64,000 nt of DNA from NCBI GenBank assembly GCA_937864225.1, contig CALMJK010000002.1, forward strand, positions 67,916-131,915, written 5' to 3'. Under the pieces are notes generated by a model, which saw only the letters and a program-made list of their open reading frames with translations, had not been told where the DNA came from and searched no databases. Shown here in pieces: positions 4,558-36,042 of this stretch. The position numbers were made by a program, and so were the translations under genes. Source of the stretch: an uncultured bacterium. GTDB lineage: Bacteria; Krumholzibacteriota; Krumholzibacteriia; LZORAL124-64-63. Position 1 is the stretch's first letter, and the number at the start of each line of letters is the position of its first letter.

Positions 4558-5205
4558 CTAGTGCAGCCTGAAGCGGAAGGGAATGGCCATCCAGACCTTC
4601 ACCGGAATGTTGCGCTGCTTGCCGGGCTCGAACTTGCACTTCATGGCTGCCTCGCGCGCCGAGGCGTCGAGCAAGGGATGCACGCCTTGCAGGACCACCG
4701 CCTGCATGACGCTGCCGTCCGGGCCCACGAGCACCTTCACAATCACCGTGCCCTCGAGCTGCGACGCGCGCGCCATCTCCGGATAGTCGGGCGGCACGAA
4801 TTTGACCATCTTCGGCTTTTCCTGCGACGCGACGAACACATCGCCGCCGTCGCCGGCGCCCATGTCGCCGCTCGTCATCGGGATGTCCTCGAAATCCTCG
4901 AAAAGGCTCTCGGCGATGTCGACCTCGTCGCTCACCTCGTCGTCCGGCGCGGCCTCGATCGGCGCCTGCGGCCGGGGGACGTCCTCGGGCGGCGGCGGCA
5001 GCTCGATGGCGTCTGGCATGTCCACGATCTCGAAGGTCGAGGTGCGCAGGCGGTAAGGATTCGGGATGTATTTCGGCGAGAAGAGGAACAGCAGCAGGAT
5101 GATGAGCATGGCCACGTACGCGCCGCGGCGCAGGTACCGGTTGTACCCCGCCTTGAACTCGTCGTTGGCCGACATCCTGATCTGCGCCAGCTGCTCGGTG
5201 GTCAT
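4558..5205 (-). CDS. tonB: TonB-family energy transducer (TonB C-terminal domain)
   Basis: Start at internal Met (MTTEQLAQIRM). Single N-terminal TM (YVAMLIILLLFLF), Pro/Glu-rich linker, C-terminal KFVPPDYPEMARASQLEGTVIVKVLVGPDGSV. Confidence 0.75.
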   Translation of the reverse strand: MTTEQLAQIRMSANDEFKAGYNRYLRRGAYVAMLIILLLFLFSPKYIPNPYRLRTSTFEIVDMPDAIELPPPPEDVPRPQAPIEAAPDDEVSDEVDIAESLFEDFEDIPMTSGDMGAGDGGDVFVASQEKPKMVKFVPPDYPEMARASQLEGTVIVKVLVGPDGSVMQAVVLQGVHPLLDASAREAAMKCKFEPGKQRNIPVKVWMAIPFRFRLH

Positions 5206-5218
5206 GCCCGCTCCTCGC

Positions 5219-5650
5219 CTAGAACTTGCGCCCGGGGGCGGCATCCGGCTTGGCGTTGAACGACACGCGCAACGCGTTGACGTCCTTGAGCTCCTCCATG
5301 ACGTCGGAGACCACCTTGTACGGCGTGGCGTTGTCCGCCTTGAAAGCCACCACCAGCGAGGGATTGCCCTGGAGCTTCTGGGCGATGAGGTTGGACACGT
5401 TGGTGTCCTGCACGAGCATGTCGTCGATGGAGATCTGGCCCCTGCGATTGATGAAGATGTTCGTCACCATCTCCTGCTTGATCTTCTCCGCCGCCTCGGC
5501 GCGGGGCAGCTCCACCACAAGCCCCGTCTCCTTGCGGAAGATGGTGGTCACCATGAAGAAGATCAGCAGCAGGAACGCGATGTCGCCGGTCGAGGCCGTC
5601 GAGATCTCCGACGTGGCCGCGCTCTTCCGCCTGAATTTCTTTGCACGCAT
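5219..5650 (-). CDS. exbD: biopolymer transport protein ExbD/TolR
   Basis: 143 aa. N-terminal ISTASTGDIAFLLLIFFMVTTIF ExbD signature. Confidence 0.85.
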   Translation of the reverse strand: MRAKKFRRKSAATSEISTASTGDIAFLLLIFFMVTTIFRKETGLVVELPRAEAAEKIKQEMVTNIFINRRGQISIDDMLVQDTNVSNLIAQKLQGNPSLVVAFKADNATPYKVVSDVMEELKDVNALRVSFNAKPDAAPGRKF

Positions 5651-5659
5651 GCTCTCGCC

Positions 5660-6073
5660 TCAAACCTTCGACGTCTTCAGCGAAACGCGCCTGGCCTCCG
5701 CGAGCTTCAGCTCGTCGAGGCAGGCGACCATCTTGCCGTAGTCGGCGTCCGGATGCGTTTCGAGGACGACGACCAGCTTCGGGTTGGCCTGCAGGCTGCG
5801 TTCGATGTTGCTCTTGATCGCGTTGATCTCGATCGGCTTCTTGTCGAGCGTGATGTGGTTGTCCGCGTGCACCTTCAGCGTCATGACGTTGCTCTGCTTG
5901 ACCCTGACCGCCTGCACGGCGCTGTCCTTGGCCGGCAGCAGCAGCGGCAGGCCGAAATCCTCGGCGAAGGCCGTGGACACGATGAAAAAGATCAGCAGCA
6001 GGAAGGCCACGTCGCCGGTCGACGCGAGATTGATCGCCCCGATCGGAGGCTTGCGCTTGATTTTCATGACCAT
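5660..6073 (-). CDS. exbD: biopolymer transport protein ExbD/TolR (second paralog)
   Basis: 137 aa. INLASTGDVAFLLLIFFIVSTAF. Tandem to the first exbD. Confidence 0.85.
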   Translation of the reverse strand: MVMKIKRKPPIGAINLASTGDVAFLLLIFFIVSTAFAEDFGLPLLLPAKDSAVQAVRVKQSNVMTLKVHADNHITLDKKPIEINAIKSNIERSLQANPKLVVVLETHPDADYGKMVACLDELKLAEARRVSLKTSKV

Positions 6074-6124: not shown

Positions 6125-6997
6125 CTACTTGCCGGCTCCCATGCGCTGGATGGCCTCGATCAGCTCGCCGGCGCTCTCCTCCATCTCGGTGACGAAGCGG
6201 TCGTTCACGTTGACGAAGTAGTTGTAGGCCGCCGCCACGGGGATGGCGATCATCAGACCGGCGGCGGTCGTGATCAGCGCCTCGGAGATGCCGCTCGCCA
6301 CGAGCTTGGCGTTGACCTGCTCGGCCGCCGCGATCGCCTCGAAGGCGTGGATCATGCCCGACACCGTGCCGAGGAAGCCGATCAGCGGCGCGATGTTGAT
6401 CACCGTCGTGAGCCAGTTCATGCCGCGCTCGAGAAAGGCCATTTCCAGGGCGCCCGCCGAGCCGCAGGCCTTCTCGACCGCCTCCGGCCCATGGTCGGCC
6501 TTCTGCAAGCCGGCGTAGAGGATGGCCGCGATCGGGCCGCGCGTACGCTGACACTCGAGGGAGGCCGCCTGCACGCCCTCCGTGCGCAGCGTGGTGATCA
6601 CGCTGCCGATGAGCTTGCGGGCGTCGGTCTTGGCGCGGTTCAGCGTCCAGGCCCGCTCGATGGTGAAGGCCAGACCGATGAGCGCCGACAAGAGCAGCCA
6701 GTGCATGAACACCCCGCCGCGCACGTACAGGTCACCCACGCCGGTCTTGCCGAGCGGACTGTTGGCGACGAGCCCCAGGAGGCCGCCCATCTTCTGCTGG
6801 ACGACCGGGATCTCGTCGGTGGAATCGGACGCGGTGCTGCCGAAGGCAAGCGAGTCGTTCGTGGCCATGATGCCTTCGATGTTCGGGCCGGCCTGGCCCG
6901 GCTCTTGGGCGACCGCGGGAACGGCCAGCAGCAGCGCCGCGCAGGCCATGCCGACCAGCGCGATCAGGGCGCGGTGGAGCGTACCGAGACGAGCCAT
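6125..6997 (-). CDS. exbB: MotA/TolQ/ExbB proton-channel protein with N-terminal signal peptide and periplasmic extension
   Basis: Start at internal ATG (MARLGTLHRALIALVGMACAALLLAVPAVA) preceded by GGGAGA. C-terminal TM core LIGFLGTVSGMIHAF...AIPVAAAYNYF typical of ExbB. Confidence 0.85.
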   Translation of the reverse strand: MARLGTLHRALIALVGMACAALLLAVPAVAQEPGQAGPNIEGIMATNDSLAFGSTASDSTDEIPVVQQKMGGLLGLVANSPLGKTGVGDLYVRGGVFMHWLLLSALIGLAFTIERAWTLNRAKTDARKLIGSVITTLRTEGVQAASLECQRTRGPIAAILYAGLQKADHGPEAVEKACGSAGALEMAFLERGMNWLTTVINIAPLIGFLGTVSGMIHAFEAIAAAEQVNAKLVASGISEALITTAAGLMIAIPVAAAYNYFVNVNDRFVTEMEESAGELIEAIQRMGAGK

Positions 6998-7244
6998 GGT
7001 GCCAGATCTCCCTTTCCAGAAATGGAGCCCGCGTGAGGATCGCACCCGAAGGGCGGAGGGTGACAGGTGGGAGCCACCCCGATCGGGCCGCAAACCCGGC
7101 AGCCAAGCCGGACACGACCCGCCCGTCGGCAGAAGCGCCGCGACCCACGGACCAGTTGCGGACGCGTTGTTAATGTGTGTCACCGCCGCAGCCAAGTCAA
7201 ACGATTTCTGGCCACGGACGGGCTCCGGACACGGGCTGCCCGGC

Positions 7245-8912
7245 TCAACCGCCGGGCTTGAGGACGCTCGTCGAATCCAGCATCCAGACCCCCACGCCGA
7301 AGCGGTCCACCAGCAAAAACCGCATCCCGAGACCCTGGCCGCTGTACCGGTTGGGAAAGAGCTGGCGTCCGGCATGGTTGTACTCCCACAGTTCGAAGCC
7401 CTGCTTGAAGGAGAGTTCCCCCTTCTTGCTCAGGATCGCGCGTCTCGTCTGGGTATTGACCACGAGCGGAATGCCAGGCTTGCCCTTGATCTGCGTCCCG
7501 TGGCGTTCGAGCGCGAAACGGTCGTAGACCTGCGCCAGGGCGTCCTCGCGCGCCCGTTCGTTGAGCGGCAGCACATCGCGCGAGATCTCGTCGGGCGGGC
7601 CAAGCAGGAGGTAGAGTTCGGCGCGAGCGTCCAGGGGACCGCGCGCTTTGATGCCCCCGAGATGTTCCCTCACGTACGAAACGCGGCACCGGAATTCCTG
7701 GTAGGCCTCGTTGACCGGGGTGGCCGGATCCGGGTCGTGTTCGCTCCAGAAGCTTTCCAGGAGGGCCTCCCGCTGGGCCTGGCCGGCCGCCTCGAATTCC
7801 TCGCGTTGATCGTCCGCCAGCACCACGCGCCCTTCCCACAGCAGTTCGTCCGCGAACCGGTTCAGTGATTCCAGGCGCCAGACGACGTCGAATTCGGCCA
7901 GCCAGCCGCGACCCCTGCCGTCGCCGGGCGCCACGCTCAGCTGGTAGACCCCGGGGGGCAGATCGGCGACGTCCAGGTCGTAGAACACGGCGGTGGCGCC
8001 GCCGGCGCTCAGGCGCGCCCCCTGGGTCTGCGTCAGCGGGATCGTGTCGCGCAGCGCGAAATCGAGATCCTTGGCCAGCACCTGAACCAGCAGCTCCGCC
8101 GGCGCGGCGTCGAGCGCCCCGGGCGCGGCCTCGACCTCGAAGTAGACCTGCAGGCGGTCCTGTTCCAACCCGTAGCGCCTTCCCGGGTGCAGATACGAAC
8201 TCAGCGCGGATTGCTCCACCTTTTCGTCGTCGAGACCTTCGTCGCTCCAGGCGCGGATCGGCGCCCGGGCCAGGAACACCGGCGCCTGCAAGGTCAACCC
8301 GGCAGGGGCCAAGAGAGGTTCGGGCGCGGCCCAGTCGGCCGCCGCCTCGCTGCGCGCCCAGAGCTGCTGGCCGGCCGGCGGCCGCTTGCCCGGGCGGGCC
8401 CGCAGCCGGTCCTCGATCGACACCGTCAGGCGCCCGCGATCGGCGCCGATGCCCCGCAGGACCAGGGGAAAATTCTGGTAGCTGGTCGCCGAAGCGGCCT
8501 GCTCCCGATCCGCGCAGCGGATGGCGATCGCGGTGGCCAACCGCGCCCCGCCGCCGCCTTCGGCGGTCAGCTCGGCCATCACGTGCAGCTGCCCCGTCAG
8601 CTCTCCCTCACCCTGCTCGAAGGTCAAATCGCGGTTCGCCGCGCAGATGAGCAGGACGAGGCTCCAGGTCCCGTCCGCCTCGCGCCGGTCGAGCACGTCG
8701 ATCGTCGTGAGGAAATTGCCCGTGCCTTCGAGCGGCCGCAGCGCGGCCATCGCCGCCCCCGCGGCGGGCAACACGGCGATCAGCACTGCTGCGACCGCGC
8801 CCCGCCGGGCCCAAACAGATGATCGAAGTTCCACGTCGGCTCCTCGGATCAGGCGCCTGCGCGGCGGGGGAGGGCGCGCCGGCCGCCTGCTTGGAAAAGA
8901 TGGTAAGGACAC
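7245..8912 (-). CDS. GWxTD-like domain protein (paralog of 845..2161)
   Basis: 555 aa with a signal-like N-terminus. C-terminal LDARAELYLLLGPPDEISRD ... LLVDRFGVGVWMLD resembles the GWxTD core. Exact start uncertain. Confidence 0.45.
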   Translation of the reverse strand: MSLPSFPSRRPARPPPPRRRLIRGADVELRSSVWARRGAVAAVLIAVLPAAGAAMAALRPLEGTGNFLTTIDVLDRREADGTWSLVLLICAANRDLTFEQGEGELTGQLHVMAELTAEGGGGARLATAIAIRCADREQAASATSYQNFPLVLRGIGADRGRLTVSIEDRLRARPGKRPPAGQQLWARSEAAADWAAPEPLLAPAGLTLQAPVFLARAPIRAWSDEGLDDEKVEQSALSSYLHPGRRYGLEQDRLQVYFEVEAAPGALDAAPAELLVQVLAKDLDFALRDTIPLTQTQGARLSAGGATAVFYDLDVADLPPGVYQLSVAPGDGRGRGWLAEFDVVWRLESLNRFADELLWEGRVVLADDQREEFEAAGQAQREALLESFWSEHDPDPATPVNEAYQEFRCRVSYVREHLGGIKARGPLDARAELYLLLGPPDEISRDVLPLNERAREDALAQVYDRFALERHGTQIKGKPGIPLVVNTQTRRAILSKKGELSFKQGFELWEYNHAGRQLFPNRYSGQGLGMRFLLVDRFGVGVWMLDSTSVLKPGG

Positions 8913-8952
8913 TCGCGCTCGCGCGCAATCTGGAAGCCGATCCCCGTCCCTC

Positions 8953-11796
8953 CTACCGGACGACGACGAACTTCCCTATGAAATCCTCGAACCGGTCGTC
9001 CTGCGACTGCACCGCGTACAGGTAGATCCCGCTCACGATCTCCTGCCCGTTCCGGCTGACCAGGTTCCACGACGCCTGCCCGTAGCCGCTCGTCCCGTCG
9101 TGATACACCGTCTGCACCAGATCGCCGTCCTCGGTGAAGATCTTGATCGTGTTGCGCGCCGCCGGCAGGTTCGCGAAACAGACGTGCACGCCGGTCGGGT
9201 CGTCCGCGTTGGGCAGGAACTCCTGGAACTCCTCCAGCGCGTCCCGCGTCGCCGGGTTCGGGTAGACATAAATGTTGGCGCCCTCGAGAGCGCGTTCCTC
9301 GGCGCTTTGCGCCGCCGCCGCGGGCACCGTGTGCGTGAACGAAGAACCCGGGTCACCCGATTGACCCTCCCCGATCGTCACATAATCGTCCCCCACGAGT
9401 CGGACGGAGTGATCGGTGGCCGTGACCGAGTAGAAATAGAGAAATCCATTGTGCACATCGTGGTCCACGTACTCGTAAAACCGCGTGCCGTGCTTGGCGA
9501 CCACGCCCACGCTCTCCGCGCGCGCGGCCGCCATGAAAAACGTGTCCAGCTCGGCCGGGTAGCCTTCCCAGGGCAGCAGCCCCTCCAACGCCGGGACCGG
9601 TATGCCGTCCCGGTCCCGCAGGGGCGGACGTGTCGACCAGGCGTTCTCGACATCGCCGTCCACGACCTCTTGCATCGCCTCCGGCAGACCGTCAAAACGC
9701 TCGCCGAAAGACGTGTCGGCCAGACACACCGGCATGTACTGGATCGACGTCAGACCCGTGTTCGCCCCCAGCGGCAGCGTTTCCGACACCACGGTGTGGT
9801 CGACCAGCTCCCGCGTGGTGATGAACGTGTTCACCACGTCGTATTCCGCGATCAACTGCCACAGCGTGCTTTCCGGACCGTTCACGACCGAAGAACCGAA
9901 CGGCCGCGTCCAGTTGTCGGCGCGCCAGATCCGGTAAGATTCGAAATCGATGACCGCCGTCCGGATGTCCTTCGTGACCTCGCTCCGGTCGTCCCAGAAA
10001 ACGTGCACGGTGTTGTCCAGCGGCCACACGCGCAGGCCCGGCGGCGGCGGCGCCATGCCCACCAGCCACCGGATGTTGTGCTCCATGCCGCCGATGCCCG
10101 TGCAACCGCCTTTCTCGCTGTCCGACGTAAGGGGCTCCCAGCAATTCCAGGTCTCCTGCAGCTGCGGCTTGTCGTTGTCGCAAATGATCCCGTTCTGACG
10201 CGAACACTCGAAACAATTGTCCATGTTCACGTAGACGCAGTGCTTGCCGAAATCAGGGTCGTCGATGTTCTCCACCACGGACAGGTCGTCTGCGACAATG
10301 CGCGGCCACGCCTGCGCCAGTTCCACGTCCACACACGACGTGTCCATGAAATCGGCCGCGAACGTGAAAATGGGATTCTGACCGCTCGCGTTGAGCGCGA
10401 AATCCTCCTGACAGATGCGCGTCTCCCGCCCATTCTGCCCGGTCGCGATGTCGCCGTCCGTGTTGAAATAGTTGCCGTAGAAGGTCAACGCCGCTTCCGC
10501 CGCGTTCGTCTGCAGCCCCTGCAGGCCAGGGCCAACCACGATCGCCGCCTGGAACTGCAGCGTGTCGCCAGGCGACAGCGTCTGGAACGGCCCGTTCGCC
10601 ACCAGAATGCGAAAATCGTTCTTCTTCGCCACGAACGTGTTGTTGTCGCGCTCTTCCCGCGACAGAAGCTCGTAGCGGTCCGAGTCGTTGACGGGATCGC
10701 CGCCCTGCTCGAAGGAAACCTGCCCGGCGAAGGCTTGATACGAGCGCACCTCCACCCGCAGCGGCGCCGTCTCCCCCGTGGGATCGGTGTCGTGCCCCAA
10801 AAACAGCAGACCAATGTAGCCGGGCGTCTGGCCGCTGTCTCCGTCGTCATCGAACATGTAGCCGACCGACACAGGCACGTAGCTCTTGTCCTTCGCCAGG
10901 ACCATGCCTTCCCACGAACCCGCCACGTCGTCGCTCGCAGCGTCGGCGACCGAACGCGGACCGATGTCGCAGTCGGCGAAAAATCCGATGTAGACATCCT
11001 CGATGGCCGCCACGCCGATGTTCGTGATGAAAAATTCGAACCCCACGAAATCATCGACGTCGTCGTTCTCCCACGCATAGGTCTGCATGATCACTTCAAG
11101 GTTCAACGGCACGTGGTCCGCGTACAACTCCCTGGCGATGCGCGTGTTGTCGTACATCGTGCAGACCATCATCTGGTTGCCCGCTTGACCGAAATCCTCG
11201 TCGATCAGACCATCATCGTCGTCGTCGTAGCCGTTGAGGATCTCCTCGTCGATCAGACCATCATCGTCGTCGTCGTTGGCCGCTTGCGGCGCCCGCCGCC
11301 CGCTGGCGTCCGCGTTGCCAGGCGGCCGCGTGAGAATCCCGCTGATCCCCTCGTAGATCGTGTCGCGCGCGTCGTCCCCCGGCCTGAACTCCATATCATA
11401 CTGCCCCGTGCTCACCAGCGGGCTGCCCAGCTGGATGCCCCCGACCCACAGACCCGCCGACCAGAGGTACTCAACGCCGCTGCCGGCCGGCCACTGCGCG
11501 GACGGCTTGTCGGACAAGGTGCTCGGGACGGAAAACCGCGATCCGATGAGGCCGAAGTTGGTGATGTTGATGTGCAGCTCACCCACGTTCATCACGTACG
11601 AGCCGTCGGTGATGTGCACGCCGTGCGGATCTTCGCGCCAGCTGTCCAGCGGATCGAAAAGCTCTACCCACGCCAACGCCGGCGTCGCCAAGGTCACCGC
11701 CAGCGCCGTCCCTGCGAGCGCCAGCGCCGCCGCGGCGAGCCGAATCCGCCGCCCCAGCGCCGCAGCAGCGCCCTCGGGCCAGGTGCGAGACAGCAT
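8953..11796 (-). CDS. large secreted protein with Asp-rich (thrombospondin-type-3-like) Ca-binding repeats and C-terminal FlgD-Ig-like / T9SS type-A sorting domain (copy A)
   Basis: 947 aa from ATG MLSRTWPEG. Signal peptide AALALAGTALAVTLATPALA. Repeats DDDDDGLIDEEILNGYDDDDDGLIDEDFGQ. C-terminus VYPNPATRD...IKIFTEDGDLV...WNLVSRNGQEIVSGIYLYAV...GKFVVVR fits the CTD sorting-domain pattern. Confidence 0.75.
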   Translation of the reverse strand: MLSRTWPEGAAAALGRRIRLAAAALALAGTALAVTLATPALAWVELFDPLDSWREDPHGVHITDGSYVMNVGELHINITNFGLIGSRFSVPSTLSDKPSAQWPAGSGVEYLWSAGLWVGGIQLGSPLVSTGQYDMEFRPGDDARDTIYEGISGILTRPPGNADASGRRAPQAANDDDDDGLIDEEILNGYDDDDDGLIDEDFGQAGNQMMVCTMYDNTRIARELYADHVPLNLEVIMQTYAWENDDVDDFVGFEFFITNIGVAAIEDVYIGFFADCDIGPRSVADAASDDVAGSWEGMVLAKDKSYVPVSVGYMFDDDGDSGQTPGYIGLLFLGHDTDPTGETAPLRVEVRSYQAFAGQVSFEQGGDPVNDSDRYELLSREERDNNTFVAKKNDFRILVANGPFQTLSPGDTLQFQAAIVVGPGLQGLQTNAAEAALTFYGNYFNTDGDIATGQNGRETRICQEDFALNASGQNPIFTFAADFMDTSCVDVELAQAWPRIVADDLSVVENIDDPDFGKHCVYVNMDNCFECSRQNGIICDNDKPQLQETWNCWEPLTSDSEKGGCTGIGGMEHNIRWLVGMAPPPPGLRVWPLDNTVHVFWDDRSEVTKDIRTAVIDFESYRIWRADNWTRPFGSSVVNGPESTLWQLIAEYDVVNTFITTRELVDHTVVSETLPLGANTGLTSIQYMPVCLADTSFGERFDGLPEAMQEVVDGDVENAWSTRPPLRDRDGIPVPALEGLLPWEGYPAELDTFFMAAARAESVGVVAKHGTRFYEYVDHDVHNGFLYFYSVTATDHSVRLVGDDYVTIGEGQSGDPGSSFTHTVPAAAAQSAEERALEGANIYVYPNPATRDALEEFQEFLPNADDPTGVHVCFANLPAARNTIKIFTEDGDLVQTVYHDGTSGYGQASWNLVSRNGQEIVSGIYLYAVQSQDDRFEDFIGKFVVVR
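11196..11276. repeat. two exact copies of a 33-bp unit (cctcgtcgatcagaccatcatcgtcgtcgtcgt) spaced 48 bp apart inside copy A; the same pair recurs in copy B about 4009 bp downstream
   Basis: Direct read. Encodes the duplicated DDDDDGLIDE Asp-rich module. Confidence 0.6.
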
Positions 11797-11964
11797 CGCG
11801 AGCTCCTTTCCGATCTGCGCAACATCTCGGCGGAACATCTCTCACGCGCATGTCGTCGCGACAACGATCAACATGAAATTACGGTTTCAGGTATCCGCCG
11901 ACAAGCGGACGCAAAACGGGCCCCTTGAAGGGGCCCGTGCGTTGCTGCGAAAAAATCGCGGGGG

Positions 11965-12897
11965 CTAGTAGGCGAACGACAGCGTCAGGCGATTCACCCA
12001 GCCCAGCGCCTGCATGTCGACCGCACTGTAGTCCAGACGCGCCTTCGACGTGCGCCCCGTCGCGAACTGCACGCCGAAGCCAAAGGCCAGGGCGTCGCTA
12101 TCGTAGTTCAGGTTGTAGCCCAGCCGGCCGTAGAACATGTTATTCAGGTTGTACTCTACTCCCATATTCGCCCGCTCACCAGCGTCCGACGGATGCTGGA
12201 ACTCCGCCGAGGCCACCAGCGCGTGATTGCGTCCCTGGAGTGCGCTGAAGCAGGCGCCGACCTTGAACGTCGTCGGCAACTTAGCCTCGCGGTCGTCGAA
12301 ATTGATCTTACCCCCCAGGTGTTGCATGACCATGCCCAGCTTCAGGCCGCGCACGCCGATGCGGTAGAGGATGCCGAAGTCCAGACTTGCGGAATTGACG
12401 CTGGTTTCAGCCAGACCCATGTGCAGGTAGTTGAGAGTGAAGCCGGAGGAAAATTTGTCCGTGAAAAAGCGCGCGTACGAGAAACCGAAGGAGGTCGAAC
12501 CGGCGTCGAAGGTCTGCCCGGTGCCCTCCGGTTCATACGCCGTGCGCACAATCATGGGATCCAACCACAGCGATCGGACCGAGAGCGCGAACGAACCCGG
12601 GATCTGCCTCGGATTGAACACCGCCACCGCCGAGGTAAGATTGATGTCCGCGGGCCACTCGACCTGCGAAATCATAAACTCGCTTCCCCGCACGTTCACC
12701 AGACCGGCCGGGTTCCAGAACACGGCCGACGCGTCGTCGGCCACGGCGGTGAAGGCCGCCCCCATGCCCGTGGCGCGGGCGGTCGTGCCTATCTGCAGGT
12801 ATTGGGCGCCGAAAGTGCCCACCTTCTCGAAGAACGCGGCCTGCGCCAGCCCAGGCAGGGCCAACACGACCAGGGTCAGGATCGTCCAGCGCTTCAT
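11965..12897 (-). CDS. PorV/PorQ-family (FadL-fold) outer-membrane beta-barrel protein
   Basis: Start at MKRWTILTLVVLALPGLAQA (GGAGG RBS). Motif GMGAAFTAVADDASAVFWNPAGL, then alternating amphipathic beta-strands, C-terminal aromatic (LTLSFAY). About 310 aa. Sits between the two cargo-gene copies. Confidence 0.6.
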   Translation of the reverse strand: MKRWTILTLVVLALPGLAQAAFFEKVGTFGAQYLQIGTTARATGMGAAFTAVADDASAVFWNPAGLVNVRGSEFMISQVEWPADINLTSAVAVFNPRQIPGSFALSVRSLWLDPMIVRTAYEPEGTGQTFDAGSTSFGFSYARFFTDKFSSGFTLNYLHMGLAETSVNSASLDFGILYRIGVRGLKLGMVMQHLGGKINFDDREAKLPTTFKVGACFSALQGRNHALVASAEFQHPSDAGERANMGVEYNLNNMFYGRLGYNLNYDSDALAFGFGVQFATGRTSKARLDYSAVDMQALGWVNRLTLSFAY

Positions 12898-12959
12898 GGG
12901 AACCTCCAAGTCCATCCACGGACGTGCCAGCATGGTCGGGGTGCTCGTTGAATCCGGCT

Positions 12960-15808
12960 CCCTACCGGACGACGACGAACTTCCCTATGAAATCCTCGAA
13001 CCGGTCGTCCTGCGACTGCACCGCGTACAGGTAGATCCCGCTCACGATCTCCTGCCCGTTCCGGCTGACCAGGTTCCACGACGCCTGCCCGTAGCCGCTC
13101 GTCCCGTCGTGATACACCGTCTGCACCAGATCGCCGTCCTCGGTGAAGATCTTGATCGTGTTGCGCGCCGCCGGCAGGTTCGCGAAACAGACGTGCACGC
13201 CGGTCGGGTCGTCCGCGTTGGGCAGGAACTCCTGGAACTCCTCCAGCGCGTCCCGCGTCGCCGGGTTCGGGTAGACATAAATGTTGGCGCCCTCGAGAGC
13301 GCGTTCCTCGGCGCTTTGCGCCGCCGCCGCGGGCACCGTGTGCGTGAACGAAGAACCCGGGTCACCCGATTGACCCTCCCCGATCGTCACATAATCGTCC
13401 CCCACGAGTCGGACGGAGTGATCGGTGGCCGTGACCGAGTAGAAATAGAGAAATCCATTGTGCACATCGTGGTCCACGTACTCGTAAAACCGCGTGCCGT
13501 GCTTGGCGACCACGCCCACGCTCTCCGCGCGCGCGGCCGCCATGAAAAACGTGTCCAGCTCGGCCGGGTAGCCTTCCCAGGGCAGCAGCCCCTCCAACGC
13601 CGGGACCGGTATGCCGTCCCGGTCCCGCAGGGGCGGACGTGTCGACCAGGCGTTCTCGACATCGCCGTCCACGACCTCTTGCATCGCCTCCGGCAGACCG
13701 TCAAAACGCTCGCCGAAAGACGTGTCGGCCAGACACACCGGCATGTACTGGATCGACGTCAGACCCGTGTTCGCCCCCAGCGGCAGCGTTTCCGACACCA
13801 CGGTGTGGTCGACCAGCTCCCGCGTGGTGATGAACGTGTTCACCACGTCGTATTCCGCGATCAACTGCCACAGCGTGCTTTCCGGACCGTTCACGACCGA
13901 AGAACCGAACGGCCGCGTCCAGTTGTCGGCGCGCCAGATCCGGTAAGATTCGAAATCGATGACCGCCGTCCGGATGTCCTTCGTGACCTCGCTCCGGTCG
14001 TCCCAGAAAACGTGCACGGTGTTGTCCAGCGGCCACACGCGCAGGCCCGGCGGCGGCGGCGCCATGCCCACCAGCCACCGGATGTTGTGCTCCATGCCGC
14101 CGATGCCCGTGCAACCGCCTTTCTCGCTGTCCGACGTAAGGGGCTCCCAGCAATTCCAGGTCTCCTGCAGCTGCGGCTTGTCGTTGTCGCAAATGATCCC
14201 GTTCTGACGCGAACACTCGAAACAATTGTCCATGTTCACGTAGACGCAGTGCTTGCCGAAATCAGGGTCGTCGATGTTCTCCACCACGGACAGGTCGTCT
14301 GCGACAATGCGCGGCCACGCCTGCGCCAGTTCCACGTCCACACACGACGTGTCCATGAAATCGGCCGCGAACGTGAAAATGGGATTCTGACCGCTCGCGT
14401 TGAGCGCGAAATCCTCCTGACAGATGCGCGTCTCCCGCCCATTCTGCCCGGTCGCGATGTCGCCGTCCGTGTTGAAATAGTTGCCGTAGAAGGTCAACGC
14501 CGCTTCCGCCGCGTTCGTCTGCAGCCCCTGCAGGCCAGGGCCAACCACGATCGCCGCCTGGAACTGCAGCGTGTCGCCAGGCGACAGCGTCTGGAACGGC
14601 CCGTTCGCCACCAGAATGCGAAAATCGTTCTTCTTCGCCACGAACGTGTTGTTGTCGCGCTCTTCCCGCGACAGAAGCTCGTAGCGGTCCGAGTCGTTGA
14701 CGGGATCGCCGCCCTGCTCGAAGGAAACCTGCCCGGCGAAGGCTTGATACGAGCGCACCTCCACCCGCAGCGGCGCCGTCTCCCCCGTGGGATCGGTGTC
14801 GTGCCCCAAAAACAGCAGACCAATGTAGCCGGGCGTCTGGCCGCTGTCTCCGTCGTCATCGAACATGTAGCCGACCGACACAGGCACGTAGCTCTTGTCC
14901 TTCGCCAGGACCATGCCTTCCCACGAACCCGCCACGTCGTCGCTCGCAGCGTCGGCGACCGAACGCGGACCGATGTCGCAGTCGGCGAAAAATCCGATGT
15001 AGACATCCTCGATGGCCGCCACGCCGATGTTCGTGATGAAAAATTCGAACCCCACGAAATCATCGACGTCGTCGTTCTCCCACGCATAGGTCTGCATGAT
15101 CACTTCAAGGTTCAACGGCACGTGGTCCGCGTACAACTCCCTGGCGATGCGCGTGTTGTCGTACATCGTGCAGACCATCATCTGGTTGCCCGCTTGACCG
15201 AAATCCTCGTCGATCAGACCATCATCGTCGTCGTCGTAGCCGTTGAGGATCTCCTCGTCGATCAGACCATCATCGTCGTCGTCGTTGGCCGCTTGCGGCG
15301 CCCGCCGCCCGCTGGCGTCCGCGTTGCCAGGCGGCCGCGTGAGAATCCCGCTGATCCCCTCGTAGATCGTGTCGCGCGCGTCGTCCCCCGGCCTGAACTC
15401 CATATCATACTGCCCCGTGCTCACCAGCGGGCTGCCCAGCTGGATGCCCCCGACCCACAGACCCGCCGACCAGAGGTACTCAACGCCGCTGCCGGCCGGC
15501 CACTGCGCGGACGGCTTGTCGGACAAGGTGCTCGGGACGGAAAACCGCGATCCGATGAGGCCGAAGTTGGTGATGTTGATGTGCAGCTCACCCACGTTCA
15601 TCACGTACGAGCCGTCGGTGATGTGCACGCCGTGCGGATCTTCGCGCCAGCTGTCCAGCGGATCGAAAAGCTCTACCCACGCCAACGCCGGCGTCGCCAA
15701 GGTCACCGCCAGCGCCGTCCCTGCGAGCGCCAGCGCCGCCGCGGCGAGCCGAATCCGCCGCCCCAGCGCCGCAGCAGCGCCCTCGGGCCAGGTGCGAGAC
15801 AGCATCGC
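12960..15808. repeat. 2.85-kb segmental duplication, copy B
   Basis: See copy A. Exact identity on direct comparison of both blocks. Confidence 0.85.
12962..15805 (-). CDS. large secreted protein with Asp-rich repeats and FlgD-Ig-like/T9SS-type CTD (copy B, identical to copy A)
   Basis: Same translation as copy A from MLSRTWPEG to KFVVVR. The upstream and downstream flanks differ. Confidence 0.75.
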   Translation of the reverse strand: MLSRTWPEGAAAALGRRIRLAAAALALAGTALAVTLATPALAWVELFDPLDSWREDPHGVHITDGSYVMNVGELHINITNFGLIGSRFSVPSTLSDKPSAQWPAGSGVEYLWSAGLWVGGIQLGSPLVSTGQYDMEFRPGDDARDTIYEGISGILTRPPGNADASGRRAPQAANDDDDDGLIDEEILNGYDDDDDGLIDEDFGQAGNQMMVCTMYDNTRIARELYADHVPLNLEVIMQTYAWENDDVDDFVGFEFFITNIGVAAIEDVYIGFFADCDIGPRSVADAASDDVAGSWEGMVLAKDKSYVPVSVGYMFDDDGDSGQTPGYIGLLFLGHDTDPTGETAPLRVEVRSYQAFAGQVSFEQGGDPVNDSDRYELLSREERDNNTFVAKKNDFRILVANGPFQTLSPGDTLQFQAAIVVGPGLQGLQTNAAEAALTFYGNYFNTDGDIATGQNGRETRICQEDFALNASGQNPIFTFAADFMDTSCVDVELAQAWPRIVADDLSVVENIDDPDFGKHCVYVNMDNCFECSRQNGIICDNDKPQLQETWNCWEPLTSDSEKGGCTGIGGMEHNIRWLVGMAPPPPGLRVWPLDNTVHVFWDDRSEVTKDIRTAVIDFESYRIWRADNWTRPFGSSVVNGPESTLWQLIAEYDVVNTFITTRELVDHTVVSETLPLGANTGLTSIQYMPVCLADTSFGERFDGLPEAMQEVVDGDVENAWSTRPPLRDRDGIPVPALEGLLPWEGYPAELDTFFMAAARAESVGVVAKHGTRFYEYVDHDVHNGFLYFYSVTATDHSVRLVGDDYVTIGEGQSGDPGSSFTHTVPAAAAQSAEERALEGANIYVYPNPATRDALEEFQEFLPNADDPTGVHVCFANLPAARNTIKIFTEDGDLVQTVYHDGTSGYGQASWNLVSRNGQEIVSGIYLYAVQSQDDRFEDFIGKFVVVR

Positions 15809-15864
15809 TGCATTCCTTTCCCGTCCGCCCGCCGCGCTCCGTGCGCGCGCGCGGCGCGGTCTAA

Positions 15865-18864
15865 TTAGAACTGCCACCGGATTCCCACGCGGAACAGCCG
15901 GTGGTCCTCGAACACTCTCGGGTCATTGATCGCGTGGAACTCGTCCAGGTTGTCGCCGTCCAGGTCCTGCAGGAACGCTCCCCCGAATTTGCCCGTTTCC
16001 GTCAGATACGAAGTGTATGCCGACGCGCCGTTGATCATGCCCGGGTAGATGTCCATCCCAACGGCTCGCACCATGTCCTGATTCAGCAGGTTCTGGGCCT
16101 GCACGTACAAGGTCAGATTCTGCCCATAGAAATTCACCTCGCGCTCGCCTTGCAGGTCGAGCACGTAGGTCGCTGGCAGGCGGCGGCTATTCTCCAGCAG
16201 CGGGTCCTGCCTCCGGTTGAAGCGATCGACGGGGGTCCAGGGGAAGCCGCTGCCGTAGGAAAAGGTCATCGAGGCCAACCACAAGCCGGGTTCGGTGATG
16301 AGGAAGTTCAAGTTGACCGTGTGGCGCTGGTCCCAGTTCAACGGCATTTCCTGATTCGGCAGATATTCCAGTCCCTCCGGGTTCGCGCCGAACTCCTGCT
16401 CCGAGGCCACGCCGTCGGCGAAGGCGTAGGTGTAGTTCACGCCGACCTCGAACTTGTTCGACAAACGCTTCTCGAGCGTGAACTCGAAGCCTCGGGAGGA
16501 CGCATAGGCCTTATTGATGTAGCGCGCGATCTGATTGCCGGTCTGCTCGTCCGTGACGGTAGTCGCGGAGATGAGGTCGTACATGTCGCGACTATAAAGT
16601 GCGACCGTGCCCGCCAGGTAATCCGTGAATTGGTGCACGAGCCCCGCTTGATAGGAGATCGTTGTCTCGGCCTTCAGGTTCGGGTTGCCCAAGGTGCCGA
16701 AGTTGCCGATCACGTCCTGGCTGGCGAAAAGCACGTTCCGGTCGGGGAACTGAATGTAGCGGCCATAAGCGAAATTGAACCCGTCGCGGTCGGTGATGGG
16801 GAACGCGAAGCTCAGTCGCGGCGAGAACTGCTGCTTGTACTTGATGACGTTGCGGTTCACCTGATCGTTCATCAGCAGAATTTCGGCGGCGGAGCCCGGC
16901 GAGAACAGATCCCACCGGAATCCGTAGCTCACGACCATGCCCTCGTACTCCCAGCGGTCCTGGGCGTACCAGGAGGCCTCGGGGTTGAAAGTGTGGAAGA
17001 CATTGCTATTGCCCCCCAGGGACCACTCCCCCGTGAAACGATTCTGCCGTTCGAGAGCGGGGTAAACCAACTCGTAGCTCTCCAGGTCGTTGTACAGCAC
17101 CTGGATCCCCGACTTCACGAGGTGCCCTTCCCAGCGGGTCGAGGTCAAATCGAACTTCATGATGTACTGACGGCTGTACTCCTCGGCGTAGTACGGGTAA
17201 TCGCCCGTCGTGATCAGCAGCGGATTCAAGGGGTCCGTGTAGTAGTCCAGCTGGGCCAAGTAGAGTTCCGCCTGGCTGTTGAACGGTCCGGGCGAAGAAA
17301 CTCCTCCCTGGTTGTATTCCCACGGCCACTTGTCCTGGACGTTGGTGTTGCCGTCAAAGGACAGGGCGCTGAGCTTGACCGTGTAGAAGGTCTCGTCGGT
17401 GAGGTTGTGCGTGAACACGAACTTGAGCTGCTGGCTCACGTTCTTCGCCGTTCGGTTGCGGTCGGCCGAGTTGAACCCGGTGTACGACGAATCCTCGGCC
17501 ACGGTCGCGTACCGGGAATCCGGATAACGGAAGCCGTCGAAAGCCGGCTGGGCCAGGACACGATAAGTCCGCCCGTCCGTGCCGCGCACCGCCAGCACGG
17601 GCGCGACCTGGCGTATGGTGCTGGAGGTGCGAAGGTCGAGCACGGCGGCGGGGCGGGCCAGTCTGCTCATGTTTTCGAACCAGGGTCCGTAGTAAACCGC
17701 CTGATAGCGCCCCATGAACGCGAAGGCGTTCTCGGAAGCGATCCATTCGACGACGGGCATCATGATGATTCGCTGGGCGTATCCGGACACGTTCCAGTTG
17801 GGTGCGTAGAACTCTGCCGACGAGTAGTTGCCCATGTACTCGCCCGTCAAACGCATGCCGGGCTTGAATTCGTAGGCGAGTTTGAGTCCCGCCTTGGCGC
17901 TGTTGGCCTGGCGGCGGCGGAATTTCAGCAGCGTGGCGTCGCCCAACTGGATCTTGTACTCGGGGCGATCGGCCAGCGAGTAATTCTCCGTGTCGCTGAA
18001 GACCGCGTCGCCCGAGAGGAAGTACGTCAGCTTGTTCACCGGCGTCGGGCCGCCGAAGCCGAACTCCAACCGGTCGTAGTTCGTGTACGTTTTGTCCTGG
18101 CGGCCGAAGTCGTCGGTGAAGTAGCGCAAGGCTCCCTCGAAGTGGTCGCCGCCGCTGCGCGTCGTGATGTTGATGATGCCGGACATCGCGTTGCCATACT
18201 CGGCGTCCAGACCGCCGGTCACCGTCTGGACGGCCTCGAACGCGAGGTTGGAGACCGATACGCTGCGCCCTCCCAGCGGGTTGTCCACCGGCACGTCGTC
18301 GATGCGCATCGAGACTTCGCCCGATCGTCCGCCGCGCACGTAGATCTCGCCCGCCCGCATGACGATGCCCGCCTGCTTGGCCACCGCGTCCTCGACGGAG
18401 TCGATGGCGTACTTGGTCAGGCGATCCTGCCCCAGCTTCTGCTCCGACCTGGCGCTGGCGACGTCCACCATGTACTTGGTGCCCTCGACGTCGAAGGCTT
18501 CGAGCGTTTCAACGATGACGACCTTCATGTTGAAGGCGACCTGCGTGGCCTCGCCGGAAGCGACGGTCACGGTCTTCTCTTCCGGCGCGTAGCCGAGGTA
18601 GAGCACCTGGACGGTGTATTGTCCCGGACGCAGGCCCTGGAAGGAGAACAAGCCGCCGCCGAGGGAAATCGTGCCTCGCGTCGTTCCCTTGATGAGAACG
18701 TTCGCGTAATCCAGCAGATCGCCTGTTTCGACGTCGCGAATGGTTCCGCGGATGCTTCCGGGGGCCGTCTGACCTGCCGCCATCATGGGCAGGGCGAGCA
18801 CGGCTAGCGCGATCAGCGCCAGCACGCCCGATGTTAGCCAGCCGAACCGGTGAGATCGGTGCAT
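15865..18864 (-). CDS. TonB-dependent receptor, SusC/RagA-like with N-terminal carboxypeptidase-regulatory-like domain
   Basis: 1000 aa from ATG MHRSHRF with AAGGAG RBS. Signal peptide, then IRGTIRDVETGDLLDYANVLIKGTTRGTISLGGGLFSF (CarbopepD_reg-like), a plug region, and a C-terminal beta-barrel ending RVGIRWQF (terminal Phe). Confidence 0.85.
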   Translation of the reverse strand: MHRSHRFGWLTSGVLALIALAVLALPMMAAGQTAPGSIRGTIRDVETGDLLDYANVLIKGTTRGTISLGGGLFSFQGLRPGQYTVQVLYLGYAPEEKTVTVASGEATQVAFNMKVVIVETLEAFDVEGTKYMVDVASARSEQKLGQDRLTKYAIDSVEDAVAKQAGIVMRAGEIYVRGGRSGEVSMRIDDVPVDNPLGGRSVSVSNLAFEAVQTVTGGLDAEYGNAMSGIINITTRSGGDHFEGALRYFTDDFGRQDKTYTNYDRLEFGFGGPTPVNKLTYFLSGDAVFSDTENYSLADRPEYKIQLGDATLLKFRRRQANSAKAGLKLAYEFKPGMRLTGEYMGNYSSAEFYAPNWNVSGYAQRIIMMPVVEWIASENAFAFMGRYQAVYYGPWFENMSRLARPAAVLDLRTSSTIRQVAPVLAVRGTDGRTYRVLAQPAFDGFRYPDSRYATVAEDSSYTGFNSADRNRTAKNVSQQLKFVFTHNLTDETFYTVKLSALSFDGNTNVQDKWPWEYNQGGVSSPGPFNSQAELYLAQLDYYTDPLNPLLITTGDYPYYAEEYSRQYIMKFDLTSTRWEGHLVKSGIQVLYNDLESYELVYPALERQNRFTGEWSLGGNSNVFHTFNPEASWYAQDRWEYEGMVVSYGFRWDLFSPGSAAEILLMNDQVNRNVIKYKQQFSPRLSFAFPITDRDGFNFAYGRYIQFPDRNVLFASQDVIGNFGTLGNPNLKAETTISYQAGLVHQFTDYLAGTVALYSRDMYDLISATTVTDEQTGNQIARYINKAYASSRGFEFTLEKRLSNKFEVGVNYTYAFADGVASEQEFGANPEGLEYLPNQEMPLNWDQRHTVNLNFLITEPGLWLASMTFSYGSGFPWTPVDRFNRRQDPLLENSRRLPATYVLDLQGEREVNFYGQNLTLYVQAQNLLNQDMVRAVGMDIYPGMINGASAYTSYLTETGKFGGAFLQDLDGDNLDEFHAINDPRVFEDHRLFRVGIRWQF

Positions 18865-19063
18865 GGCACCGCTCCTTTCACACACGGCGATTGAGCGAAA
18901 GCTGATGGTCCACATCGGCCCGTGCAACCGGATACATCCCAACTCGCGGCAATGTGGGGAGCCAGAGTGTATCTGTGCGTCCGGGCGACCTTTCACCTCC
19001 CGCCGGCTGCTGCGGTGAGGATGCGGCCGCCCCGATCAGGGTCGTACCGGCAACTCCGAGTTG

Positions 19064-19092
19064 AATATAGAGATTGCCAGAAACCGTGTCAA
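19064..19092 (-). promoter_or_regulatory. near-consensus sigma70 promoter TTGACA-N17-TATATT, followed by a ~200-nt leader before the TonB-dependent receptor ATG
   Basis: Minus-strand read ttTTGACAcggtttctggcaatctcTATATTcaactc. The -35 box overlaps the TGA stop of the upstream ABC ATPase gene. An AT-rich element in a 70% GC background. Confidence 0.5.
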
Positions 19093-20090
19093 AAGGTTCT
19101 TGGGGCCCGCCGCGCCGCGGGCGGGCACCTCAGAAAATGCGCCGCGGACACCTCGGCCAAGTCCGGCAACTCGGTGCGGCACGACGCCTCGGCGAGGGCG
19201 CAGCGCGGATGGAAGGGGCAACCCGGCGGCCTGGTCAGCAAGCTGGGCGGTTCCCCGGACCTCCCGGGAAACGGTTCGCGCGGTCCCGGCGCGGTCGGCA
19301 AGGGCGCCACAGACGGCACGGCCGCCGCCAGCAGGCGGGAGTACGGGTGCAGCGGCGGCGTGTCGGCGCCGCCCGGCATCACTTCCACCAGCAGGCCCAG
19401 GTACATGACCGCGACGCGGTCGCAGAAGCGGCGCACGACCGGCCAAGCGTGCGAGACCAGCAACAGCGCCAGCCCCCTGCGCTGCCGCGCCGACAGCAGC
19501 ACGTTGAGCACGCGCGCCTGCGAGGTGAGGTCGAGCGCGGCGGTCGGTTCGTCCGCCACCAGCGCCGCCGGCTGCGCGGCCAGCGCTCGGGCGATCGCGA
19601 CGCGCTGGCGCTGACCGCCTGACATCTCATGCGGCCAGGCGGCGGCGAGCGCCCCGTCGAGACCCACCTCATCGAGCAGGCCGAGTACGCGCTCGTGATC
19701 GTCAGGCTGCCGGCGGCCGTCCCGTCCGGCCTCGAGAGCCTCGCGCAGCGCCTCCTCCACGGTCTGGCGCGGATCCAGCGAACCACTCGGATCCTGAAAG
19801 ACCATCTGGACCAGCCGCCGCGCGCAACGCAGCTGGCGCCCGCGCAACTGCGCGAGCTCGCGGCCGGCCACCAGCACGCGTCCTGCCGTCGGCGCCAGCA
19901 ACCCCGCCATGGCGCGGGCCAGCGTCGACTTCCCGCCGCCCGATTCCCCGGTCAACCCCACGCTGTCGCCCGCCCGCAGCGCGAGCGACACTCCCGCCAC
20001 CGGGTGCAACGATCGGCCGCGCCTGCCCGCGCCGCCCGGCGCGCGCCGCGTCACGACCAGATCGCGGACCTCGAGCACGGGTTCGCTCAC
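19089..20090 (-). CDS. oligopeptide/dipeptide ABC transporter ATP-binding protein (DppF/OppF-like)
   Basis: GTG start overlapping the upstream stop (GTGA). [25 protein letters not shown]-terminal Cys cluster CPFHPRCALAEASC typical of the OppD/F C-terminal domain. Confidence 0.85.
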   Translation of the reverse strand: MSEPVLEVRDLVVTRRAPGGAGRRGRSLHPVAGVSLALRAGDSVGLTGESGGGKSTLARAMAGLLAPTAGRVLVAGRELAQLRGRQLRCARRLVQMVFQDPSGSLDPRQTVEEALREALEAGRDGRRQPDDHERVLGLLDEVGLDGALAAAWPHEMSGGQRQRVAIARALAAQPAALVADEPTAALDLTSQARVLNVLLSARQRRGLALLLVSHAWPVVRRFCDRVAVMYLGLLVEVMPGGADTPPLHPYSRLLAAAVPSVAPLPTAPGPREPFPGRSGEPPSLLTRPPGCPFHPRCALAEASCRTELPDLAEVSAAHFLRCPPAARRAPRTF

Positions 20091-31499: not shown

Positions 31500-32501
31500 A
31501 TGGGCGAGTTGATGGAGATCATCGAGTGGTTCGACGAGTCGGGGCAGGCCATGGCCCACCGCTTCCCGCCGGACGGCTCGGGCGCCCTGAAAATGGGGGC
31601 GCAGCTCATCGTGCGCGAGAGTCAGGAGGCCGTGTTCTTCAGCGGCGGCCGGGCTCTGGACCGCTTCGCGGCGGGCCGCTGGACCCTGAGCACCGCCAAT
31701 CTGCCGCTGCTCACGTCCGCGCTCTCCCTGCCGTGGGGCTTCCGCTCGCCCTTCCGGGCCGAGGTCGTCTTCACCAATCGCAAGACCTTCACCGACCTGC
31801 GCTGGGGCACCCAGGAGCCGGTCATCTTCAAGGACGAGAAGCTCGGCCACGTTCGTCTGCGCGCCTTCGGCAACTACACGCTGCGCGTGGATGACACCCT
31901 GGCGTTCGTCAACCGGGTGGTCGGCACCGCCGGGCATTATGCAACCTCGGAGTTGGAAGGGTTCCTGCGCGACGTCATCGTCGCCCGCCTGAACGACTTC
32001 CTGGGCGAGACCCTCCAGACGATCTTCGACCTGCCGGCCAACTACGACGAGATGGCGAGCGCGATGCAGGCCCGCCTGGGGCCCGACTTCGCCCGCTACG
32101 GTCTGACGCTGGAGGGCTTCTGGATCCAGTCCGTGACGCCGCCTGAAGAGGTGCAGCGCATGGTCGACGGCCAGGGCGGACTGGCGCTCGTGAAGGACAT
32201 GCCGGCCTGGATGCAGTACCAGATGGCCTCGGCGATCGGGCGCGAGCAGACCGGAGGCACGAGCGACCAGCTCGTCGGCGCTGGCCTGGGCGTCGGGGTC
32301 GGCATGATGCTGCCCGGCATGCTGCGCGACGCCCTGCACGTCGGGCCGAGCGGCGGCGCGGGCGCGCCGGCTCCCACCGGCGGCGGCGCCGGCGGCGGCG
32401 CGGCGGGCGCGGGCTTCTGCGCGCAGTGCGGCGCCGCGCTGCCCGGGGGCGCCCGGTTCTGCCCGGGTTGCGGCCGCGCCCTCGACGGTTCGCAGTCATG
32501 A
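31500..32501 (+). CDS. SPFH/band-7 family protein (Band_7_1 type) with C-terminal zinc-ribbon
   Basis: [18 protein letters not shown] with [34 protein letters not shown]...[12 protein letters not shown] is the Band_7_1 signature. C-terminal [19 protein letters not shown] zinc ribbon. Confidence 0.75.
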
Positions 32502-34425: not shown

Positions 34426-34447
34426 GCGTGCGGAAGGGGGCGCGACG

Positions 34448-35125: not shown

Positions 35126-35135
35126 AGCGCGGCGG

Positions 35136-35852: not shown

Positions 35853-36042
35853 CGTTTTCCTCCGCGTTCACCCGAGCCGGCGCCGGCGAGCGCCGGCGGC
35901 GGCATGCTAGCCGCGCCGGACGCCGACGGCAAGCCCAGCCCTCGCGACGGCGCGCCGCGGCGACCTTGCCCGGTGCACCGCCGAACACCATACTAGGGAT
36001 CCGCGCCGGCGCTCCGGCCAGCCGCCGCCCCGAGGAGGGCCC

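Follow-up and report, generated by a model that had tools for sequence, protein, structure and literature searches.

Why should a perfect 2.85-kb repeat in a bacterial chromosome begin and end with a gene? The question is raised by a 64,000-nt stretch of DNA (the window; contig CALMJK010000002.1 of assembly GCA_937864225.1, positions 67,916 to 131,915) whose host is a Candidatus Krumholzibacteriota bacterium. The window encodes two copies of a 947-aa putative secreted protein, here called the cargo, on either side of a gene for an outer-membrane barrel of the PorV/PorQ family. The repeat ends, exact to the coding sequence (CDS), have a conventional explanation. Independent assemblies and related genomes indicate that the duplication is genuine and not a scaffolding error, and that it is an ordinary gene duplication specific to this lineage. 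The exact identity of the copies is most likely a product of the assembler that hides a few real differences, and it is an even call whether gene-bounded conversion has maintained their likeness.

Seeded repeat finding with exact-match extension showed that positions 8952-11799 and 12961-15808 agree over 2848 nt with 0 mismatches, their starts lying 4009 nt apart. A perfect repeat of this length cannot have arisen by chance. The preliminary description had drawn both blocks correctly except for a start coordinate that was 1 nt off, and the overlooked mismatches that it had allowed for do not exist. It had also noted that the block edges coincide with the gene, and indeed each block consists of one minus-strand CDS, three nucleotides (GCG) 5' of the ATG and a single G 3' of the stop codon. 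The ATG lies at 11796 in copy 1 and at 15805 in copy 2, and the TAG stop ends at 8953 and 12962, respectively. Between the blocks is a unique spacer of 1161 nt (11800-12960). The flanks had been said to differ completely. Identity in the 50-400 nt outside each block end is indeed 25-29%, the random level for sequence of 69% G+C, and a search for residual homology in the 150-nt flanks gave local alignments no better than those of shuffled sequences (p about 0.5-0.7). An 8-nt motif resembling a ribosome-binding site (RBS) is nonetheless common to both copies, 4-5 nt outside the block. A mobile element or cassette (insertion sequence, integron cassette or retro-copy) was considered and rejected. 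The block ends bear neither inverted nor direct repeats, there is no recombinase, the block is one conserved chromosomal CDS and its neighbours are genes of a conserved cluster.

The duplicated arrangement recurs in public data. The order TonB-dependent receptor (TBDR), cargo, PorV-family gene, cargo, GWxTD-domain gene was found in seven independent metagenome assemblies, and the SPAdes contigs of ERZ781235, 237, 240, 242 and 243 show it at 99.9% identity to the window. Shorter sequences (contigs and loci are given L numbers) break where the repeat begins or ends. Contig L004 (1315 nt) comprises the spacer and 77 nt of each copy, and the Logan unitig L005 (1221 nt, in 6 runs) comprises the spacer and exactly 30 nt of each copy. 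L003 begins 55 nt inside the repeat, and the Logan contig L094 begins about 30 nt inside the repeat end that precedes the GWxTD gene. These breaks correspond to the overhangs of k or k-1 that are expected at a branch in an assembly graph. The junctions seen are those of the PorV spacer with both the cargo end and the cargo start, of the GWxTD gene with the cargo end, and of the TBDR gene with the cargo start. Given that the PorV-family gene lies between cargo and GWxTD in every relative, the simplest genome path through these junctions is A-R-S-R-B, with the repeat (R) on both sides of the spacer (S). A depth test was attempted from the coverage tags in contig names, among which no repeat-only contig was found, and two scans of Joint Genome Institute metagenomes for this species gave no match. 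A planted or synthetic duplication was also considered; it is rejected by the occurrence of the same arrangement in public assemblies from several samples.

The identity of the two copies is less secure than their existence. Both copies are identical to each other in six of the six two-copy contigs (the window, L001, L002, L086/87, L088/89 and L090). Between assemblies, however, the repeat occurs in seven forms that are mosaics of 22 biallelic sites at CDS positions 184-2541. Twenty of these sites fall within positions 184-789, including 12 at 241-324 (within 85 nt, with five amino-acid changes) and four at 399-404 (within 6 nt), and all four combinations of these two main clusters occur among the repeat forms. 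The six two-copy contigs differ at 21 sites in the 2848-nt repeat versus 6 sites in 13.1 kb of flanks and spacer. The variation density is thus 7.4 per kb inside the repeat and 0.46 per kb outside it, a 16-fold difference.

De Bruijn assemblers represent a repeat as one graph edge, resolve the bubbles inside it once and then write the loop out twice. The excess of variation inside the repeat, together with the same state in both copies of each contig, is most simply read as one graph edge emitted twice. If the copies were truly identical everywhere, each change would have been copied separately to the second gene in each sample while the flanks stayed constant. The overhangs of the neighbouring contigs (77, 30, 55 and about 30 nt) are a further mark of a collapsed repeat, as is the excess polymorphism. 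The duplication described earlier as perfect is therefore 100% identical in the window, but short-read assembly has probably overstated its true identity; comparison of the assemblies suggests that the real copies are at least 99.2% identical and probably not 100%. The possibility that the assembler concealed a second copy of far greater divergence was rejected, as identity is at least 99% among all six members of the 90% cluster and the relative that comes next, at 70%, is from another sample.

The polymorphic patches have features of their own. The clusters at CDS 241-324 and 399-404 correspond to window positions 11473-11556 / 15482-15565 and 11393-11398 / 15402-15407, respectively. The window alleles at these places (F..R.V.P..K and DM) look derived, and the alternative alleles in other assemblies (H..Q.I.Q..A and ER) fit the family consensus better. 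Clusters of this multi-nucleotide kind point either to sequence imported from another paralogue or to change that diversifies the two copies.

Relatives indicate which copy is the addition. A scan of GTDB representative genomes yielded 80 loci, onto which four cluster proteins were mapped. The cargo gene is followed by the PorV-family gene in 52 loci, and the TBDR gene lies upstream of the cargo in most related loci whose contig reaches that far. About 40 loci extend to the GWxTD gene and have no second cargo, the GWxTD gene directly following PorV. These include the nearest relatives L007, L008, L091 and L092 (65-70% aa identity), of which L091 and L092 were fetched separately from the GTDB scan. 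The single-copy relatives imply an ancestral state with one cargo gene between TBDR and PorV, to which copy 1 (8953-11796) has been added. The preliminary description had proposed such a search for single- and double-copy arrangements, and the double layout emerged in just one distant clade.

In that clade (L042; L043 with L046; L056 with L063) the order is TBDR, A, PorV, B, GWxTD, where A and B are cargo copies that are 72-74% identical at the nucleotide level and evenly diverged along the gene (60-84% identity). In a neighbour-joining tree, the B copies group as sisters of their own clade's A copies and stand well apart from the window. The insertion point differs as well, lying between the PorV terminator and a promoter-like motif in the distant clade and downstream of the motif in the window, and so does the RBS. 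The tree placement and the different insertion point imply that the cargo-PorV-cargo layout arose at least twice. An ancient duplication common to the window and the L042 clade, followed by losses, was rejected on the tree and on the differences in insertion point and RBS. Further cargo paralogues are found at a distance from any PorV gene (L040, L051, L053, L055 and L060).

Paralogous cargo genes show further arrangements. One metagenome-assembled genome (MAG; CAXXKE01, contigs over 1 Mb) holds a dispersed pair, L027 10129-12828 and L040 10060-12759, 89% identical over 2700 nt with no gap. Their homology begins just after the signal-peptide region and runs to precisely the stop codon; no PorV gene adjoins L040. 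Gene-bounded homology may thus be recurrent in the cargo family. In a more distant branch of the family (44-49% identity) there are tandem pairs arranged head to tail, without a PorV-family gene in between (L064 2665-8031, L071 4731-10301, L073 3416-8946, L075 10001-15439 and L077 7320-12871).

The short sequences just outside the repeat bear on how its sharp edges came about. The motif GGAAAGGA occurs only twice in the window, with both strands counted, once upstream of each cargo copy. It also precedes orthologous cargo genes across the phylum, in L007, L008, L009, L042, L091 and L092, whereas neighbouring genes use GGAGG or GAGGAG as RBS and not GGAAAGGA. A cargo-type RBS at the new copy, outside the identical block, implies that the copied unit was once larger than the block is now. 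The bases between the motif and GCG are ATGCA at copy 2 and GCTC at copy 1, a complete difference that includes an indel. Gene conversion tracts run only to where homology stops, and a diverged 5-nt stretch beside 2848 undiverged nucleotides is what gene conversion predicts. The variable patches are clustered and recombine among assemblies, their sites not being assignable to individual copies from the contigs; such patches fit incomplete conversion better than point mutation.

The region into which the new copy was placed also contains putative transcription signals. A hairpin following the PorV-family gene has a 10-bp perfect stem and a folding energy of -39.8 kcal/mol (z = -4.4), and equivalent hairpins follow PorV in L006-L012, L080 and L092. 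A simple terminator scan did not flag the hairpin, whose tail has only 4 T. The intergenic regions between PorV and GWxTD in L006, L007, L008, L009, L080 and L092 share a promoter-like motif in the form CCGTAGATTCA, CCGTAAATTCA or CCGTAGCTTCA. A sigma-70 promoter scan found nothing, and the case for a promoter at the corresponding site in the window therefore rests on conservation of the motif alone. When the two halves of the PorV-GWxTD intergenic region were aligned to that of L092, nothing was recognisable beyond the terminator, the promoter-like motif and the RBS of the GWxTD gene. With just these three elements in common, the insertion junction is not reconstructable.

We propose that, in this lineage alone, the cargo gene and its RBS were copied into the PorV-GWxTD intergenic region, where the new copy would have landed downstream of both the PorV terminator and the usual promoter-like element of the GWxTD operon. 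RecA-type gene conversion would keep, or would recently have restored, the uniformity of the two direct repeats, stopping where homology ends, 3 nt 5' of the ATG and 1 nt 3' of the stop codon. A recent duplication with CDS-restricted conversion had been among the explanations offered in the preliminary description. It is the one we favour, and the single-copy relatives and the RBS motif outside the block speak for it, the conversion step being our inference. The terminator and the promoter-like element both lie upstream of copy 1, and the same protein may consequently be encoded in two transcription units. Copy 2 would be expressed with the TBDR and PorV-family genes, and copy 1 with the GWxTD-exbBD-tonB unit.

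The alternatives differ in how much of this they would remove. At one extreme, the genome would hold a single cargo gene and the second would be an assembly or scaffolding artefact, arising in the assembler or from mixed strains. Such an origin might appeal to the identity of the copies within every contig, to a repeat written from one graph edge and to the inability of a short-read assembler to resolve 2.85 kb by reads alone. It is nevertheless very improbable for the duplication, as the PorV spacer joins both the cargo end and the cargo start in independent runs (L004 and L005), the GWxTD-cargo end (L094 and L003) and TBDR-cargo start junctions exist, and PorV is a chromosomal gene between cargo and GWxTD in all relatives. 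What an artefact probably does account for is the exact 100% identity. The main rival to gene conversion is a single, very recent duplication whose copies are identical or nearly so without any conversion, an origin that we consider possible but doubtful. It may have taken the form of a cargo-PorV tandem duplication followed by loss of the second PorV gene, or of a template switch during replication. Its junctions would have ended up just outside the RBS and the stop codon, as only intact, translatable copies survive, and the short intergenic regions (59 and 64 nt) do limit the viable junction sites. The 4-5 nt difference beside the RBS would be one complex mutation or junction filler. The single-copy state of the closest relatives suits this origin. 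The paralogous copies are at least 99.2% identical, compared with at most 70% aa identity to the nearest orthologue. Several points weigh against conversion in the same sense. No variant lies in the opening 186 nt or the final ~300 nt of the block, a pattern that a very recent copy would also show. The copies in the distant clade have diverged in the ordinary way with no sign of conversion, and homogenisation is not general in the cargo family. The evidence for age is thin, comprising only the 5-nt spacer and the clustered polymorphisms, and the flanks show no partly diverged homology other than the 8-nt motif. The likely collapse of the repeat is read from a comparison of contigs and from the way in which SPAdes resolves simple loops. 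A very recent duplication, however, requires a 5-nt replacement with an indel between RBS and ATG while 2848 nt stayed almost untouched, and recent point mutation does not explain variable patches such as 12 sites in 85 nt. It is also improbable that both junctions should fall within a few nucleotides of the gene ends (by a rough estimate, well under 1%).

A further proposal concerns selection and fits both origins. An additional cargo gene next to its PorV-family partner may have been advantageous, through dosage or a second promoter, as a cargo-shuttle-cargo module. We regard this as unlikely, although it would explain the repeated origin of the layout and the persistence of direct repeats that have not been recombined away. 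The module had been put forward in the preliminary description, and it receives some support, as the same layout was acquired independently in the distant clade and the cargo-PorV adjacency is kept in 52 loci. The position of the new copy behind a PorV terminator and a conserved promoter-like motif also suits it. The usual conserved module is nevertheless cargo-PorV, a single cargo copy suffices in about 40 lineages, and divergence between the copies of the distant clade is normal. Other cargo paralogues are located away from any PorV gene, and a local duplication is expected to leave its copies near each other without selection.

Table 1. Features of the duplicated cargo locus and the adjoining gene cluster (window coordinates)
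Feature	Position	Strand	Evidence or remarks
TonB-dependent receptor (TBDR) gene, 999 aa	15865..18864	-	Pfam TonB_dep_Rec_b-barrel 2.3e-26, CarboxypepD_reg 2.5e-15 (N-terminal), Plug; gene call from public contigs; first gene of the conserved cluster
RBS-like motif GGAAAGGA of copy 2	15814..15821	-	5 nt upstream of GCG-ATG, cargo copy at the ancestral position
Repeat copy 2, cargo CDS 12962-15805, 947 aa	12961..15808	-	Ancestral position between TBDR and PorV genes, from synteny with more than 40 single-copy relatives
PorV/PorQ-family outer-membrane barrel gene, 310 aa	11965..12897	-	In the spacer; NCBIfam PorV_fam
G+C-rich hairpin followed by UUUUG, likely terminator	11911..11945	-	Just 3' of the PorV stop codon; RNA fold
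Promoter-like element TTGTCG-N17-TAATTT, core CCGTAATTTCA	11876..11904	-	Motif conservation only
Second GGAAAGGA motif, copy 1	11804..11811	-	4 nt upstream of GCG-ATG, outside the identical block
Repeat copy 1, cargo CDS 8953-11796, 947 aa	8952..11799	-	Extra, lineage-specific copy in the PorV-GWxTD intergenic region
GWxTD-domain protein gene, 529 aa	7245..8834	-	NCBIfam TIGR04514 GWxTD_dom 8.8e-13; gene call from public contigs
exbB	6125..6997	-	Pfam families precomputed on identical public contigs, coordinates converted
exbD	5660..6073	-	Pfam families precomputed on identical public contigs
exbD, second	5219..5650	-	Pfam families precomputed on identical public contigs
TonB C-terminal-domain gene	4558..5205	-	Pfam families precomputed on identical public contigs

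[quoted passage not shown] No Pfam family matched the 947-aa protein above threshold. Its N-terminus carries a hydrophobic helix ending in ATPALA-W (modelled as helix 9-36), which, judged from the sequence and the model, has the character of a signal peptide. The C-terminal ~115 residues give weak but consistent matches to T9SS sorting domains. They match the C-terminal region of PorZ with E = 4e-9, and the scores for TIGR04183 (19.3 bits vs 23), PF18962 (14.7 vs 27) and CHU_C (20.4 vs 27) are below the thresholds. The AlphaFold model has a mean predicted local distance difference test score of 73.9. In Foldseek, it matched the beta-sandwich region at the N-terminus of enzymes of the GH116, GH94 and dextran dextrinase types (TM about 0.2), and its own C-terminus aligned with that of PorZ (C-terminal domain, 5m11) at 25% identity across 106 columns. 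A search of PDB sequences with the cargo family profile found no match. Cargo homologues number in the hundreds, all of about 910-980 aa, and those with names are labelled Candidatus Krumholzibacteria; one (P0106) is named 'T9SS type A sorting domain-containing' by NCBI. We read the cargo as a protein that is probably secreted or surface-located and has a tail like those of T9SS substrates. No T9SS core genes (SprA/Sov, PorK/L/M/N, PorU) were found within the window, and a literature search found no paper linking Krumholzibacteria with T9SS.

Each cargo copy also contains a perfect 34-nt direct repeat, 48 nt apart (11195-11228 and 11243-11276; 15204-15237 and 15252-15285). It encodes the acidic motif DDDDDGLIDE(E/D) twice, which resembles calcium-binding motifs of the thrombospondin type 3 or EF-hand kind. 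One cargo homologue is named 'EF-hand domain-containing' by NCBI.

The spacer gene encodes a barrel of the PorV/PorQ type, as had been proposed. Its 310-aa product scores 170 bits against NCBIfam PorV_fam (NF033709; cut-off 90) over residues 30-309 of 310, and 31.2 bits against Pfam PorV (27). A weak match to Pfam Toluene_X (OMPP1/FadL/TodX) is in keeping with a FadL-like fold. The protein fails the equivalog cut-offs for both PorV (60.5 vs 250) and PorQ (72.6 vs 220) (NF033710, NF033711). It is a member of the PorV/PorQ family only, and neither PorV nor PorQ proper. The exact protein is found on 9-10 public contigs. Roles of the two proteins as T9SS cargo and shuttle are proposed here.

The cluster extends beyond the genes of Table 1. 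Past exbB-exbD-exbD-tonB are an OEP gene, an ABC ATPase gene and a second GWxTD gene. The two GWxTD genes (845-2161 and 7245-8834, both on the minus strand) are thus separated by exbB-exbD-exbD-tonB and the OEP and ABC ATPase genes. A literature search found no paper mentioning GWxTD. Third-position G+C is 0.84-0.86 in the TBDR-cargo-PorV-cargo-GWxTD cluster (7245-18996) versus 0.92-0.96 in most other genes of the window; expression level, amino-acid usage or a different history could be the cause. An Rfam scan of 6500-19500 found no RNA family.

The remainder of the window is chromosomal housekeeping, including UvrA, PNPase, TrkH and a Na/Pi transporter. A 923-aa open reading frame (ORF; 60244-63015, plus strand) combines a GT4 glycosyltransferase with heparinase II/III N- and C-terminal domains and is located near a Polysacc_synt_2 gene (52102-54153). 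Another ORF of 1376 aa (31975-36105, minus strand) has no Pfam match at E <= 1e-4 and was not picked by a G+C-based gene filter; it may not be a real gene.

The locus carries a wider lesson for MAGs. A sharp, byte-identical repeat may be a genuine duplication whose perfection is a product of assembly, and here the comparison of independent assemblies exposed this without any reads. If gene conversion is the right explanation, the locus would illustrate cleanly, for an uncultured phylum, how concerted evolution can be limited to a coding sequence. More interest attaches to the conserved TBDR-cargo-PorV-GWxTD cluster as a lead than to the duplication itself, whose interest is modest. Together with ExbBD/TonB, this uncharacterised cluster spans 52 loci and suggests that PorV-family barrels may be dedicated to single cargoes outside Bacteroidota. 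We speculate, with little confidence, that in Krumholzibacteriota a PorV-family barrel could be the private shuttle or anchor of one surface protein, working with the adjacent TBDR and its own ExbBD-TonB motor. A second cargo would have been added repeatedly under a different promoter, and here kept identical by conversion. If true, cargo and shuttle would be paired in the T9SS style for a type-A-like CTD in a phylum other than Bacteroidota, and the pairing would be tied to nutrient uptake.

Known systems offer partial parallels. In Flavobacterium and other Bacteroidota, T9SS type B cargo genes (e.g. SprB/SprF) adjoin those of their cognate PorP/SprF-like shuttle or anchor barrels (PMC12618676). 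The present locus likewise has the gene of a probable secreted protein with a T9SS-like CTD beside that of a small outer-membrane barrel in the PorV/PorP superfamily, which presumably serves this protein alone. It differs in that the barrel is of the PorV/PorQ family, the tail resembles the type A and PorZ types at sub-threshold scores and the phylum is Krumholzibacteriota. The pair is moreover embedded in a cluster of TBDR, ExbBD and TonB genes. PorV of Porphyromonas and Flavobacterium, the general shuttle for type A CTDs, shares with the present barrel the PorV_fam match and probably the FadL-like barrel fold. The Krumholzibacteriota protein is, however, shorter, scores below the equivalog cut-offs and goes with a single cargo family, where PorV has many cargoes.

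For the duplication, the parallel is concerted evolution of the tuf type, in combination with a collapsed assembly repeat. The tufA/tufB genes of Salmonella and E. coli are likewise near-identical copies of a protein gene on one chromosome with unrelated flanks, and their identity corresponds to the coding sequence. The tuf copies are, however, ancient, inverted and 762 kb apart, whereas the cargo genes are lineage-specific direct repeats separated by 1.16 kb, for which conversion is proposed and the true divergence is probably hidden by assembly. The likeness to collapsed de Bruijn repeats lies in a repeat longer than the reads that forms one edge, with unique neighbours that end k or k-1 inside it (L004, L005 and L094). 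Contigs that traverse the loop carry byte-identical copies, and the variants are bubble choices that differ between assemblies. Where the cargo repeat departs from such cases is that it is genuine, and only the last fraction of a percent of its identity is in doubt.

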